A stretch of DNA of 64,000 nucleotides from Candidatus Lustribacter sp. (GTDB taxonomy: Bacteria > Vulcanimicrobiota > Vulcanimicrobiia > Vulcanimicrobiales > Vulcanimicrobiaceae), in NCBI GenBank assembly GCA_965277805.1, contig OZ255842.1:2496001-2560000 (forward strand), written 5' to 3'. Below the pieces are notes generated by a model, which saw only the letters and a program-made list of their open reading frames with translations, made no database searches and was not told where the DNA came from. Shown here one piece after another: positions 1 to 4,315 of this stretch. The first letter of the stretch is position 1. Each line of letters opens with the position of its first letter. Made by a program: the position numbers and the translations under genes.

Positions 1-214
1 GCACCTGCACCTCGGCCGAGCGCGCACGCTCGAGCAGGTTGCGCAGCGCCGGATCGCTCTTGCGCTCGTCGCCGACGTGGATGCGCCGCAGCGGTTCACC
101 CGCCACCAGCGCTTCGTTGACGGCGTGAATGCCGTAGATGACGTCGTCGAGGTCGACGCGCGGGCCGGGCGGGCGCTGACCGCGCTGCGGCGCTATGCGC
201 CGCCGGCGGTCCAC
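1..214 (-). CDS. rlmB: 23S rRNA (guanosine-2'-O)-methyltransferase RlmB, N-terminal part (runs off window)
   Basis: Manual translation ...VDLDDVIYGIHAVNEALVAGEPLRRIHVGDERKSD... resembles the SpoU substrate-binding N-terminus; lies directly after cysS as in the cysE-cysS-rlmB operon; GTG start at 214 is inferred. Confidence 0.8.
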   Translation of the reverse strand, partial: MDRRRRIAPQRGQRPPGPRVDLDDVIYGIHAVNEALVAGEPLRRIHVGDERKSDPALRNLLERARSAEVQV

Positions 215-1680
215 GTGGTCGATCCGTCCTTGCCGTCGGTGAGCACGATGCCTTCGGCCGCAAGCGCGTTGCGCAAGCGGTCGGCGAGCGCGAAGTCGCG
301 CGCCTTACGGGCGGCATTGCGCGCATCGATCACGCGCTCGACCACGCCTGCCGGGCTCTCGCCGTTGAACGCGATCGCATCGGCGAGCGCCGTGCGCAGG
401 CGCTCGATCTTCGCCGGGTCGACCTCGGCCGTTTGCGCGACGGCAATCGTGCGCGTGAGAATGTCGCCCGCGCCGAGCACGCCGAGCCCGTCTTCGAAGA
501 GCGCGCGCGCGGCCGACGCGGCAGCGCCCGCCTCCGCGGCGACGATCTTCGGCGCGGCATTGGCAACATCGAAGAGCACGCCGATCGCGCCGGCGGTGTT
601 CATGTCCTCATCGAGCGTCTCGAAGAAGCGCACGGCGGACGCAGCGATCGCTGCGCTCAGATCGCCGTCACCGCTGCCGCTCACGTTCGCCAGCGCATCG
701 TATGCCCGGCGCAATTTCTCCACGCCGCTGTTGGCCGCGGCGATCGCGTCTTCGGTGAAGTTCATCGGTTTGCGGTAGCCGGTCTGCAAAAACAAAAGCC
801 GGATCGCGAGCGGGTCGTGCCGCGCGAGCAGCGCCGACAGCGGTTCGAAGTTGCCCAGCGATTTCGACATCTTGCGGCCGTCGAAGTTCAGCAAGCCGCC
901 GTGCATCCACACGTTTGCCAAGTGCGAATGCGGCGGCATCAGCGCCTCGCTCTGAGCAATCTCGTTCTCGTGGTGCGGGAAGATCAGGTCGTAGCCGCCG
1001 CCGTGAATGTCGAAGGGCACGCCGAGCAGTTCGCGCGACATTGCGCTGCACTCGATGTGCCAGCCCGGCCGTCCCGAACCCCACGGCGAGGGCCATTGCG
1101 GCTCGCCGGGCTTCGCCAACTTCCACAGTGCAAAATCGAGCGGATCGTTCTTCTGCTCGTTCTCGGCGATGCGCGCGCCGACCAGCAGCTCGTCGACGTC
1201 GCGGTGCGAGAGCGCGCCGTAGCGCGGAAACGACTTGACCGCATAGTACACGCCGTCGCCGGTTGCATACGCGTGTCCGCTTGCGATCAGTTCGGCGATC
1301 ATGTCGACGATCGCATCGATGTGCTGCGTCGCGTGCGGTTCGAGATCGGGCTCGCGCACGCCGAGCGCGCGCATCCCGTCCTTGAAGCGGCCGTAGTATT
1401 TGGCCACGATCGCTTCGACGCTCGAGCCTTCGGTCTGCGCGGCTGCAATCGAACGGTCGTCGATGTCGGTCACATTCTGCACGTACGTTACGCGGTAACC
1501 GTTGCGCGGGTGCGCGAGATAGCGCCGTAAGACGTCGAAAAACAAAAAAGACCGGGCATGGCCGAGGTGCGCTTCAGCCGACGGGGTGAGACCGCACACG
1601 TACATGCGCACCTCGCCGTCGACGAGCGGCACGAACGGAGCGACCGCGTGCGTGAGGGTGTTATAGAGCCGTAGAGACAT
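193..1680 (-). CDS. cysS: cysteine--tRNA ligase
   Basis: [48 protein letters not shown] and KMSKS motifs; start placed at [10 protein letters not shown]. Confidence 0.97.
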
Positions 1681-2335
1681 CGTTGCGATCGACGAGTTCG
1701 GCGAGACGCGCCTCGAGCGCTGCAATGCGCGCGCGCAATTCGGCGACCTCGGTCGCACCCGGATCGGGCAGGTCCACCTGCGGACGTGCTGCCGGCAGCG
1801 CGATCGGGCGGCCGTCCTGCAGGACGACGCGCCCCGGAATCCCGACCACGGTTGAGTTGGCCGGAACGTCCTTCACCACAACCGAGTTCGCGCCGATCTT
1901 CACATTTTCACCGATCGTGATGTCGCCGAGCACCGCCGCGCCCGAGCCCACGACGACGTTATCGCACAGCGTCGGATGACGCTTCTTGCGCTGCAGCGAC
2001 GTACCGCCCAGCGTCACGCCCTGATAGATCGTGACGTCCTTACCGACGATCGCGGTGCCTCCGATGACGACGCCCGTGCCGTGATCGATGAAGAAGCCAG
2101 GGCCGATCGTTGCGCCCGGATGGATATCGATCCCGGTCGCGCGGTGCACGACCTCGCTCATCAGCCGGGGCAGCAGCGGGACACGGGCCTGCCACAGCGC
2201 ATGGATGGCCCGATGCGCCGTAATGGCGTGAAAGCCGGGATACGAGAGAAAGACGTCGAGCCAGCCTTCAGCCGCCGGGTCGCGTTCGACCGGCGCCCGG
2301 AGGTCGGCGAGAAACGTCGCGAACGCGTCACGCAT
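1661..2335 (-). CDS. cysE: serine O-acetyltransferase
   Basis: [39 protein letters not shown] hexapeptide motifs. Confidence 0.96.
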
Positions 2336-2358: not shown

Positions 2359-2904
2359 CTAAGCATCCGGTGGTTTCTGCGGCTGAATCGTCTCGAACGG
2401 CACCCCGCCCGGGCCGTACTGGATCGGCTCGAGACCGCGACCGTGCAAGAGGTGCGAGCTGACCGCGCCGATGCGAATCATGATGCGCTCGTGGCCCAGC
2501 AGCGGGAAGAGGAGCTCGAGCGGCGGTCCCTCCTTCCGGCCCGTTAGGGCCATCCGCACGGCTGCCTGCGCATCGTCGTGCGCGATTCCGAACTCATCGG
2601 CAATGGCCGGGATGTCGCCCGCCAGCGGCAAGTCGCGCAATTCGGGCTGCGCATCGACGTATTGCGCGACCGCGTCGAGAAAGAAAACGGCCTGGCGGTT
2701 GCGCAAGCGCTCGAGTTCGAGCGCGGGGATGACCGTGGCCTCCGCGCGCAGCAGCGCGACCTCATTGAGCGCGTCCTCGATAGTCGCGCAGCGCGCGCCG
2801 TACGCGTCGAGAAAGGTCGCGATCCAGCGTTCCGCCGCCGGCGGCGCCGGCTCCTCGAGCAATCCGTGGCGCTGCATCGCGCTCGCGAGTTCGCCGGCGG
2901 TCAT
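2359..2904 (-). CDS. stand-alone glutamyl-tRNA synthetase anticodon-binding-domain protein
   Basis: [30 protein letters not shown] matches the GluRS C-terminus; no HIGH/KMSKS catalytic domain; occupies the gltX position. Confidence 0.75.
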
Positions 2905-3377
2905 TCGAGCGAGGTCAAAAGCGCGACCGCGTACGCGGCGATGCCGCTACCGTCGCCGGTATAGCCCATGCCTTCGCTGGTCTTCGCCTTCACGCTGATC
3001 TTGCCGATATCGAGGGTCAGCGTCTCGGCCAGCGTGTCGCGCATCGAGGCGATGTGCGGCGAAAGTTTCGGCGCTTGTACGACGACGGTCGCATCGATGT
3101 TGCCGATCGTCCAGCCGTGGCGAACGAGTTGCTCGTGGACGGCCGCAAGCAGCGTGAGCGAATCGACGCCCTTCCACTGCGGGTCCGTATCGGGAAAGTG
3201 CGCGCCGAGATCGCCGAGTGCGGCCGCACCGAGCAGCGCATCGCAGATTGCGTGCGTCAGCGTGTCGCCGTCGGAATGGCCGAGCGGCCCGCGCTCGAAC
3301 GGGATCGTCACGCCGCCCACGACGAACGGGCGACCTTCGACGAGCCGGTGCGCGTCGAAACCGTGGCCCACGCGCAT
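2901..3377 (-). CDS. ispF: 2-C-methyl-D-erythritol 2,4-cyclodiphosphate synthase
   Basis: RVGHGFDAH, GHSDGD, GDLGAHFPDTD, VKAKTSEGMG. Confidence 0.97.
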   Translation of the reverse strand: MRVGHGFDAHRLVEGRPFVVGGVTIPFERGPLGHSDGDTLTHAICDALLGAAALGDLGAHFPDTDPQWKGVDSLTLLAAVHEQLVRHGWTIGNIDATVVVQAPKLSPHIASMRDTLAETLTLDIGKISVKAKTSEGMGYTGDGSGIAAYAVALLTSLE

Positions 3378-4315
3378 CACGCGCGCGGGACCACGTGCGA
3401 GAGATGCGTGGTGAACAGCGCGCCTTCACCCGCGACCGCATGCAGCCGGCGGCCGAAGCCGCGCAGGGCATCAGAACTTGCATAGGCGCGAATCGCAACC
3501 GCATTCGGCAGATCGCGATCGACGCCGTCGATCCGCGCCGAACGCGCTTCCAGTTCGGCCAAGATGGCATCGACCGATTGCGGCTCGACGAAACACTCGA
3601 CCAGAAACACGTCTTCCTCGGGGACGACGACCGGATCGCGCTCTTGCGCGATCGCTTCGGCCCGCACCAGATCGACCGGGTGCGTGACCTTCATATTTTC
3701 AACCGGCGACTCGACGACGACGACGTCGCAACCGCTGCGCTCGAGCAGCGCGGCATCGTCGGTCGCGCGCGGCCAATCGTGACGCACGGCTTCCGTATGC
3801 GCCGCGCGCATGTCGCGCGCCGTCGCGAATTGCGGCGTTTGCGCCGACCACAGCGTCGCGCGGTCGAGCGTGCGCGTGACTTTGAGCTGATCGTCGACGA
3901 TCTTGATCGTATCGACCACCGGCGCGGCCAACAGCGACGCGACGCCGGGCCGTACGGCCCGCATCCCCGCCCGTACGTCGCTCGCGCGAACGAACGGCCG
4001 AGCGCCGTCGTGGACGAAAATTCCCGCGCAGTGGTCAGGCAGCGCCGCGATCCCGCTTTCGGCGCTGGCTTGGCGGTCGGGGCCGCCCGCGACCACGAGC
4101 AGCGATGCCGCGCGCACGCTGCCGATCACCGCTTCCTGCACGTCTTCGATAAACTCGCGCTCCGTGACGATCACGATGTCGGAGATCTCCGGCATCGATG
4201 CAAACACTTGGACCGACCACGCCAGCATGGGTTTTCCGCCGAGCCGGATCAGCTGCTTCGGCTTGCCGAACCGGCTGCCGCGCCCGGCAGCCACAATAAC
4301 CGCGCCCCAAATCAT
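3377..4315 (-). CDS. ispD: 2-C-methyl-D-erythritol 4-phosphate cytidylyltransferase with C-terminal extension
   Basis: AAGRGSRFG, VHDGARP, QTPQ, TDDA, NMKVT; extra ~80 aa C-terminal domain. Confidence 0.93.
   Translation of the reverse strand: MIWGAVIVAAGRGSRFGKPKQLIRLGGKPMLAWSVQVFASMPEISDIVIVTEREFIEDVQEAVIGSVRAASLLVVAGGPDRQASAESGIAALPDHCAGIFVHDGARPFVRASDVRAGMRAVRPGVASLLAAPVVDTIKIVDDQLKVTRTLDRATLWSAQTPQFATARDMRAAHTEAVRHDWPRATDDAALLERSGCDVVVVESPVENMKVTHPVDLVRAEAIAQERDPVVVPEEDVFLVECFVEPQSVDAILAELEARSARIDGVDRDLPNAVAIRAYASSDALRGFGRRLHAVAGEGALFTTHLSHVVPRA

Follow-up and report, generated by a model that had tools for sequence, protein, structure and literature searches.

The stretch of DNA analysed here, which we refer to as the window, comprises 64,000 nucleotides of the genome of Candidatus Lustribacter sp. 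(assembly GCA_965277805.1, contig OZ255842.1, positions 2,496,001 to 2,560,000 of the forward strand). On its minus strand lies a string of genes that Pfam searches identify as plsX, hemW, PIN-TRAM, ispD, ispF, a short open reading frame (ORF), cysE and cysS. The short ORF is intact, encodes a protein of 181 residues (P0001) and occupies the slot of gltX, the gene for glutamyl-tRNA synthetase (GluRS); a first-pass annotation of the sequence had described this arrangement, including the presence of hemW in the string, and it holds. The product is a free-standing GluRS anticodon-binding domain (ACD), which very probably descends from a complete enzyme encoded in this slot. The hosts of the gene are uncultured soil and peat bacteria (Eremiobacterota). 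The features of the locus, in window coordinates, are these:

2359..2904, minus strand: free-standing ACD gene (P0001), 181 residues plus stop codon, recognised by its ORF, Pfam family PF19269, fold and purifying selection
2467..2844, minus strand: core ACD (residues 21-146), predicted helical subdomains equivalent to GluRS domains IV-V, with R117, G126 and L129 (Pfam envelope, profile alignment to 1g59/1j09, invariant columns)
2362..2466, minus strand: conserved C-terminal tail (residues 147-181; alignment, presence in full-length slot GluRS, selection analysis)
2901..2904, minus strand: ATGA overlap of the ispF stop (TGA) and the ACD-gene start (ATG), read from the sequence
2901..3380, minus strand: ispF, upstream neighbour of the ACD gene (Pfam YgbB, E 3e-65)
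1661..2335, minus strand: cysE, downstream neighbour of the ACD gene (Pfam Hexapep and SATase_N)
193..1758, minus strand: cysS (Pfam tRNA-synt_1e, E 7e-115)
3377..4315, minus strand: ispD with an additional C-terminal region of ~85 residues (Pfam IspD on residues 5-224 of 312)

The ATG of the ACD gene lies at 2902-2904 and shares its ATGA with the ispF stop codon, and no Shine-Dalgarno-like sequence is visible upstream of this start. Together these two features make coupled translation plausible; of the coupling to ispF that had been proposed, the overlap is seen directly and the coupling itself we infer. The cysE start follows 23 nt past the ACD-gene stop and has a ribosome-binding site of its own, AAGAGG.

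Profile searches identified P0001 as a GluRS ACD. The protein passes Pfam PF19269 (Anticodon_2) with an E-value of 4.7e-9 and 37.2 bits (cut-off 23.6) over profile positions 10-138 of 141 and residues 21-146 of P0001; in a genome-wide search with the same profile it scored 37.6 bits. On TIGR00464 it reached 27.6 bits, far below the equivalog cut-off of 289.95, and covered model positions 346-464 only. No catalytic domain was detected in P0001, which has no PF00749 match and thus no HIGH/KMSKS class I domain. A single-sequence phmmer search against PDB sequences was too weak (best E 0.05), whereas the profile search worked. An AlphaFold2 model built from an alignment of 29 sequences has a pLDDT of 91.8, a pTM of 0.86 and eight helices, with pLDDT falling to 74-79 in the tail. 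When this model was compared with the PDB using Foldseek, all 27 rows listed between ranks 1 and 41 were bacterial GluRS chains (TM score on the query 0.50-0.70, ~150 aligned columns), and E-values exceeded 1 from rank 42. As modelled, P0001 has the all-helical two-subdomain fold of bacterial GluRS domains IV-V. The initial by-eye assignment, a GluRS ACD without a catalytic domain, was therefore confirmed by the PF19269 search and by the GluRS fold.

Comparison with relatives indicates how the short gene arose. In genome G019 (locus L020) the same slot holds a 524-residue GluRS with HVGG and KLSKR motifs, whose last 179 residues, tail included, are 63% identical to P0001; aligned with this full-length protein, P0001 starts exactly at the domain boundary. 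The slot gene is also full-length in G020, G025, G026, G027 and G039. The 35-residue tail of P0001 shows a family motif followed by a variable acidic and Pro-containing end in the alignment, and it is likewise carried by the full-length slot GluRS of G019, G027 and G029. Judged from these alignments, the tail is inherited from the full-length enzyme and is not new to the short protein: the Pro/Gly-rich tail noted at first pass is real and conserved over residues 147-181, and the description of it as novel does not stand. A further subgroup of slot GluRS (L027, the slot gene of G020, and P0039) keeps HVGN or HVGG together with KLSKR but has neither the zinc-binding insertion (Pfam positions ~97-143) nor the conserved tail, and in its ACD it shares only ~35% identity with P0001.

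Intermediate states are preserved as well. At 16 of the 49 species-level loci found in public genomes, an N-terminal GluRS-like region stands in frame with an ACD 65-75% identical to P0001, and in 14 of these 16 the class I signatures are eroded to varying degree. HIGH is replaced by HVGA, HVGS, AFGV, RAGD, RVAD, DVGA or DAAG; KLSKR by KLSSA, KLSAR, ALAKR, KPAKD, EPGEH or LPDG, or it is deleted; and EDTD by DDTS, DDAG, AAAD or FRDE. The zinc-binding insertion is absent from the eroded slot genes, and KLSKR is retained at two of the 16 loci (L055 and the partial L069). The slot-gene PF00749 pieces score 30-119 bits in four eroded-slot genomes, compared with ~320 for intact enzymes, and in a fifth, G045, no slot PF00749 match was detected. 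The eroded N-domains have a ratio of non-synonymous to synonymous substitution rates (dN/dS) of 0.17-0.54 (median 0.35, 55 pairs), against 0.22 for the ACD part, and one motif-eroded slot protein passes TIGR00464 at 336 bits. Because of this constraint and this TIGR00464 match, we call these genes motif-eroded and do not regard them as proven dead.

In a tree of 80 ACD rows, from which L074 and L080 were excluded as frameshifted assemblies, the proteins that carry the tail group together in one clade with full support, and G019 and L069 branch off first within it. Within it, a subclade with 99% SH-aLRT support unites 50 ACD-only rows, 14 motif-eroded rows and the motif-keeping L055. The ACD-only state requires at least three changes on this tree, two of them forced by well-supported branches, which implies that the catalytic half was removed more than once and that the ACD and tail were kept each time. 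Taken together, we regard an origin of the short gene from the slot GluRS, with selective retention of the ACD, as well supported.

Retention is also evident from substitution patterns. Compared with the window's genome, dN/dS of the ACD gene within the genus is 0.10-0.16 at dS 0.48-0.82, and across five genus-level loci the median is 0.133 (0.097-0.180, 10 pairs); the neighbouring genes at the same loci give 0.065 (ispF), 0.082 (cysE) and 0.156 (ispD). Tail and core are equally constrained (0.23 vs 0.24, 107 of 190 pairs usable). By these ratios the ACD-only gene is under purifying selection. Close relatives do carry a full gltX in the slot, yet the short ORF is not decaying neutrally, and the first-pass view of a selected, repurposed protein rather than debris is upheld, with dN/dS of 0.10-0.18 within the genus. 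The protein is 61-92% identical over its whole length across at least 17 genera. Of 24 genomes from the window's family, 23 have it, the miss being G015, which is 75% complete; without G015, an unpublished genome, the count is 23 of 23. Other unpublished genomes entered the tRNA comparison and the type C and GluTR samples described below (G036) and the comparison of tRNA(Gln,CUG) D-arms (G178 and G206), and no conclusion depends on them. In wider searches, 1070 protein clusters of 99-317 residues match at E <= 0.001, with the source names 'hypothetical protein', 'Anticodon binding domain' or 'glutamyl/glutaminyl-tRNA synthetase'. Among 1.84 billion proteins, only 54 representatives reach E 0.001, and all 30 neighbours in the ESM Atlas are PF19269 clusters, with Vulcanimicrobiota the commonest phylum. 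On the evidence of these searches, the free-standing ACD is a narrow, clade-specific family.

We then considered which GluRS enzymes accompany the ACD. The genome of the window (G000) is a single contig of 5.53 Mb with an estimated completeness of 95%. It contains one PF00749 match, in a full-length gene of 505 residues at 3.899 Mb that has its own ACD, and two PF19269 matches, the stronger in this gene and the other in P0001. A tblastn search of G000 with the catalytic domains of both resident GluRS types defined below matched only the 505-residue gene and revealed no remnant. The gltX found elsewhere in the genome is thus full-length and not catalytic-only.

Three types of GluRS were distinguished. 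Type A is the ispF-cysE slot gene wherever the context was examined (G019, G020, G025, G026, G027 and G039). Type B is a second GluRS, present in 11 of 11 sampled genomes of family f3 (10 of 10 without the unpublished G036), in three genomes of family f2, and in G019 and G020; these last two have types A and B and no type C. Type C, whose sequence starts RTRIAPSPTGDPHVGTAY, is the 505-residue enzyme, and it is the only catalytic GluRS in 19 of 19 genomes of the window's family (f1) that have an ACD-only slot. It was also found in four of five motif-eroded-slot genomes, the exception being G041. Its position is:

L001:997-2511, G000 contig C1 ~3,898,464-3,899,978, outside the window: type C GluRS, the genome's only catalytic GluRS, assigned by its bit score to 5tgt

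Type C scores 621 bits against the Pseudomonas aeruginosa enzyme (5tgt), 584 against that of Moraxella and 450 against that of Chlamydia pneumoniae, which places it in the noncanonical dimeric GluRS subfamily (Fenwick et al. 2025, PMC12088422). As described in passages of that paper, the ACD of each protomer in this subfamily recognises the anticodon of the tRNA bound to its partner, and most Chlamydiia have Tyr at the PaPhe439 position, as does type C. Reading in trans is thus the norm in this architecture. Types A and B of the same family share only 36-44% identity with type C; set against its high similarity to proteobacterial enzymes, this suggests horizontal acquisition, and type C appears to have displaced two resident GluRS genes. 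The passages of PMC12088422 on distribution list GlnRS-less Chlamydiia, some proteobacteria, Holophagae and 'Ca. Uabimicrobiia' as carriers; the range of the Pseudomonas/Chlamydia-type GluRS would now include Eremiobacterota, a phylum outside that list.

The anticodon-contact residues of P0001 were located by aligning the family profile (29 sequences) with the Thermus thermophilus GluRS chains 1g59 and 1j09. R117, in the motif VRM, falls in the Arg435 column and is invariant in 29/29 sequences; G126, in the Thr444 column, is likewise invariant in all 29; and L129, in the Leu447 column, is invariant in the family. R38, in the motif GAR, falls in the Arg358 column, which varies among the stand-alone proteins (R, P, G, N, K, A, S, Q, H, L). 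Both arginines had been put forward as possible anticodon readers; the suggestion fits the invariant R117, and R38 lies in a column that varies. According to passages of PMC12088422, the arginine that PaPhe439 replaces is highly conserved, stacks on U35 and hydrogen-bonds C34, and Leu447 forms part of the floor of the U34 site; by the offset of four residues stated there, this arginine corresponds to T. thermophilus Arg435.

The same columns separate the GluRS types. At the Thr444 position, Gly is found in all type A rows and Ser in types B and C; at the Arg358 position, intact type A enzymes have E, G or H, and types B and C have Arg. The P0001 family carries the Gly at the Thr444 position that marks the GluRS2 type; P0001 itself has Arg in the Arg358 column, unlike intact type A enzymes. 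Excerpts of PMC2978374 report that Arg358Gln turns T. thermophilus GluRS non-discriminating and that Glu334Arg/Gly417Thr shifts Helicobacter pylori GluRS2 from preferring tRNA(Gln) to being specific for tRNA(Glu). We infer that H. pylori Glu334 and Gly417 occupy the same columns as T. thermophilus Arg358 and Thr444. Given this mapping, type A would be a tRNA(Gln)-charging or non-discriminating GluRS and type B its tRNA(Glu) partner.

Glutaminyl-tRNA synthetase (GlnRS) was not detected in G000 (no PF03950 match), and a sample of 121 family genomes, whose genera are only partly listed, gave no match either; no asparaginyl-tRNA synthetase scored above the cut-off in G000, and GatB is present. Without GlnRS and with GatB, the cell must make Glu-tRNA(Gln), and in G000 only type C can do so. 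We propose that the ancestral slot enzyme, type A with its GluRS2-like ACD and presumed preference for tRNA(Gln), worked beside the tRNA(Glu)-type enzyme B. Lineages with the horizontally acquired type C lack B, and in them the catalytic half of A would have lost its motifs and been deleted repeatedly while ACD and tail were kept. With its Arg117/Gly126/Leu129 surface the ACD protein would still bind the anticodon arm, either of tRNA(Gln) alone or of the two Glx tRNAs, and would assist the indirect route to Gln-tRNA(Gln) in trans, being useful there without being essential. It might, for instance, present tRNA(Gln) to the foreign GluRS, to GatCAB or to both, or hold it in place for them. This trans-acting, anticodon-arm-binding accessory is the mechanism we prefer, though tentatively. 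A repurposed tRNA-binding factor, as the first-pass annotation had put it, is accordingly still the best description, and the evidence points to the anticodon arm of tRNA(Gln) or Glx tRNAs, not to tRNA(Glu) and heme.

The ACD is common in the window's family without being universal. A sample drawn from the whole phylum comprised 151 genomes with a completeness of at least 85%. Of its 82 members of this family, 78 have a type C orthologue (at least 55% identity), and 46 of these 78 carry the ACD. Every genome gives a strong ACD match in 31 of 35 sampled family genera, a count that includes genera with a full-length slot gene such as g13 (G019) and g51 (G168).

Several observations weigh against an anticodon-arm-binding accessory. 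The ACD is found in only one of 30 genomes of genus g30 and in none of three of g45; the ACD-less genomes of these genera are 93-98% complete and all have type C, and of five g30 loci inspected, four have cysE immediately downstream of ispF and one, that of G107, keeps the ACD. Loss of the ACD with type C retained suggests that it is helpful beside type C and not indispensable, and Chlamydiia, as stated in part of PMC12088422, manage with a type-C-like enzyme alone. The Arg358 column varies in the family and is Arg in P0001, so specificity for base 36 is not evident. Stand-alone ACDs are acidic, with a median isoelectric point (pI) of 4.9 (20 sequences), compared with medians of 5.7, 6.8 and 7.0 for the ACDs of full enzymes of types A, B and C, and such acidity is no less compatible with a protein partner than with RNA. 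Nor does tRNA(Gln) co-vary with the ACD: tRNA(Gln,UUG) is identical with and without it in the five g30 genomes compared (5/5), and between the A+B genomes G019 and G020 and the window's genus it is 95-100% identical. In two g30 genomes without the ACD, the D-arm of tRNA(Gln,CUG) takes another form; a tie between this form and loss of the ACD was dropped as a candidate, the same form (at least 91% identity) being present in the ACD-bearing G008, G113, G115 and G134. Finally, the eroded N-domains of sister lineages are still constrained, and a dead enzyme is not proven for all of them.

Some side observations concern the tRNA-Gln genes themselves. In G000, the genes for tRNA-Gln(CUG) and tRNA-Glu(CUC) are separated by 7 nt (L134, contig C1 ~807,925-808,076) and have a D-arm in common that tRNA-Gln(UUG) does not share. 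The Glu-like D-arm form of tRNA-Gln(CUG) beside tRNA-Glu(CUC) occurs in both A+B and C genomes, and a second D-arm form of tRNA-Gln(CUG) is found in part of the family. Three or four extra partial copies, consisting of the 3' two-thirds and spaced ~138-164 nt, accompany tRNA-Gln(UUG) in G132 (C2:824,801-825,518), G109 (C1:2,607,545-2,608,109) and G022 (C1:1,920,157-1,920,643); they may represent a repeat array with the tRNA or an integration site as its seed.

Type C was also examined for traces of a relationship with the ACD. No column of the enzyme differed consistently between 24 ACD-bearing and 17 ACD-less genomes. However, its C-terminal extension, which carries a motif like LGxxSxxEQKxW, is missing in 14 of the 17 ACD-less genomes and in only one of the 24 ACD-bearing ones (loci compared: L185-L202 versus L082-L099, L122-L125 and L189). 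On the tree this co-loss amounts to three independent contrasts, none in the opposite direction (sign test, p 0.25). The C-terminal extension of the noncanonical GluRS is placed near the acceptor arm in the portion of PMC12088422 that deals with it. Structure prediction of a complex between type C GluRS and the ACD gave no answer (score 0.00 in two runs without controls) and is evidence for neither side.

The main rival explanation is that the acidic helical domain and its tail form a protein-protein adaptor in which anticodon binding no longer matters, the partner being the lysine-bearing C-terminal extension of the noncanonical GluRS, GatCAB or the product of a neighbouring gene. The low pI relative to the ACDs of active enzymes, a tail constrained like the core, the freedom of the Arg358-equivalent position and the co-occurrence of ACD and type C extension all fit such an adaptor. 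Against it stand the invariance of R117, G126 and L129, and the fact that the acidity and the tail were already present in the intact G019 enzyme (pI 5.26); the protein partner remains hypothetical. We consider an adaptor unlikely on balance, though it deserves more weight than any other competitor. Distinctly improbable, in our estimate, is a more specific arrangement in which the free ACD serves as a swappable anticodon-reading module of type C, replacing the ACD of one protomer on tRNA(Gln) and so licensing mischarging for GatCAB. This idea builds on the cross-protomer anticodon reading of type C and on its tRNA(Glu)-type Arg/Ser signature. Docking would occur through the conserved ACD tail, the type C extension or both, and ACD-less lineages, most of which also lost that extension, would have re-tuned type C. 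If true, two polypeptides would here form a natural system, with the remnant of a displaced synthetase providing the tRNA specificity in trans.

Other explanations fare worse. The first-pass annotation had suggested partitioning of Glu-tRNA(Glu) between translation and C5 tetrapyrrole synthesis, for instance through GluTR, and two GluTR genes in G000 as well as hemW in the same gene string could be cited in its favour. Yet genomes with a full-length slot GluRS (L025, L026 and L027) also have hemW upstream of this cluster, so that gene order indicates an ancestral hemW synteny; GluTR is present in 30/30 g30 and 3/3 g45 genomes, from genera lacking the ACD, and in 80 of 81 sampled family genomes; and the ACD signature is GluRS2-like, the mark of tRNA(Gln)-preferring and not of tRNA(Glu)-specific enzymes. 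Since hemW synteny and GluTR thus occur with and without the ACD, we find a heme link very unlikely. The two GlutR_N genes of G000 lie ~20 kb apart on contig C1 (4,608,265-4,608,714 and 4,627,740-4,628,195), and most relatives have one. Still less credible is a neutral relic, that is, the leftover 3' end of a deleted gltX that stays open by chance or merely ferries ribosomes to cysE-cysS. Origin by deletion and complete loss in g30 and g45 agree with a relic; dN/dS of 0.10-0.18 at dS 0.5-0.8, within the range of ispD, whole-length identity of 61-92% across those 17 or more genera, and the ribosome-binding site that cysE has of its own do not. The earlier proposal of a split GluRS whose catalytic half is encoded separately draws on domain content only: the single PF00749 match of G000 lies in the 505-residue gene with its own ACD, no further type A or B catalytic domain was matched there, and the same single-enzyme state recurs in 19/19 relatives. 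Subject to the 95% estimated completeness of the one contig, a split GluRS is refuted for this genome.

Two neighbours of the ACD gene showed peculiarities of their own. The C-terminal extension of ispD (window 3380-3637, minus strand) has a faint similarity to EFG_C (E 0.011, below the cut-off); it aligns within the genus and in L018, L030, L041, L050 and L058, and in other relatives the match stops near residue 226. The longest cysS ORF has a GTG start and overlaps the 3' end of cysE by 98 nt (window 1661-1758, minus strand). Since the catalytic Pfam domain is matched from residue 42 onwards, translation of cysS probably begins further downstream.

In summary, living relatives preserve a whole series of states at one locus: intact enzyme, motif-eroded enzyme, ACD only, and nothing. 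The change accompanies an enzyme replacement, in which a noncanonical GluRS acquired horizontally took over from two GluRS in a phylum without GlnRS, and therefore bears on how mischarging of tRNA(Gln) is secured when synthetases are swapped. The case also poses the question of whether an anticodon-binding domain can function in nature when it is encoded as a protein of its own, as a split E. coli enzyme reportedly does in vitro. Aminoacyl-tRNA synthetases have known offshoots that consist of a single domain; the catalytic half of GluRS, for one, is common in isolated form (YadB/GluQRS). An isolated GluRS N-domain is called 'rampant' in bacteria in a passage by Dasgupta and Basu (PMC3927822); a full-text literature search, covering listings, openings of abstracts and a few passages, found no natural, selected free-standing GluRS ACD.

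Compared with the ACDs of bacterial GluRS (T. thermophilus 1gln/1j09, Thermosynechococcus 2cfo and Methylacidiphilum 8jpv), P0001 has the same fold (TM score 0.6-0.7), belongs to the same Pfam family, and retains the motif xRxALTG..GP.L..L..LG..R with the Arg that contacts U35 and C34; it differs in standing alone without a catalytic domain, in its conserved 35-residue tail, in its acidity and in its distant sequence. Its parent, type A, resembles H. pylori GluRS2 and other tRNA(Gln)-preferring paralogs, being likewise one of two GluRS in the absence of GlnRS and having a non-Arg residue at Arg358 and Gly at Thr444, if our column match is right; P0001 has lost the catalytic half and so is no GluRS2 enzyme. 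Type C is a member of the noncanonical dimeric subfamily of P. aeruginosa, Moraxella and Chlamydia, whereas the stand-alone ACD is of the canonical type. According to the title of a report by Dubois et al. from 2009 (Biochemistry 48:6012), the free distal anticodon-binding domain of a split E. coli GluRS reportedly stimulates a C-truncated GluRS in trans, and this would set a precedent for a GluRS ACD that functions as its own polypeptide; that was a laboratory construct, and here the resident GluRS is full-length and of another subfamily. YadB/GluQRS and P0001 are both natural single-domain offshoots of GluRS, YadB corresponding to the catalytic half and P0001 to the opposite one; YadB is an enzyme with a known substrate, the queuosine of tRNA(Asp). 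Other free-standing domains derived from aminoacyl-tRNA synthetases (Trbp111/CsaA, AlaX, YbaK/ProX and HisZ) come from other synthetases and folds, and none is a GluRS ACD. With YadB, Trbp111 and AlaX the ACD nevertheless shares what sets such domains apart, namely a gene of its own, conserved across species and maintained by purifying selection.

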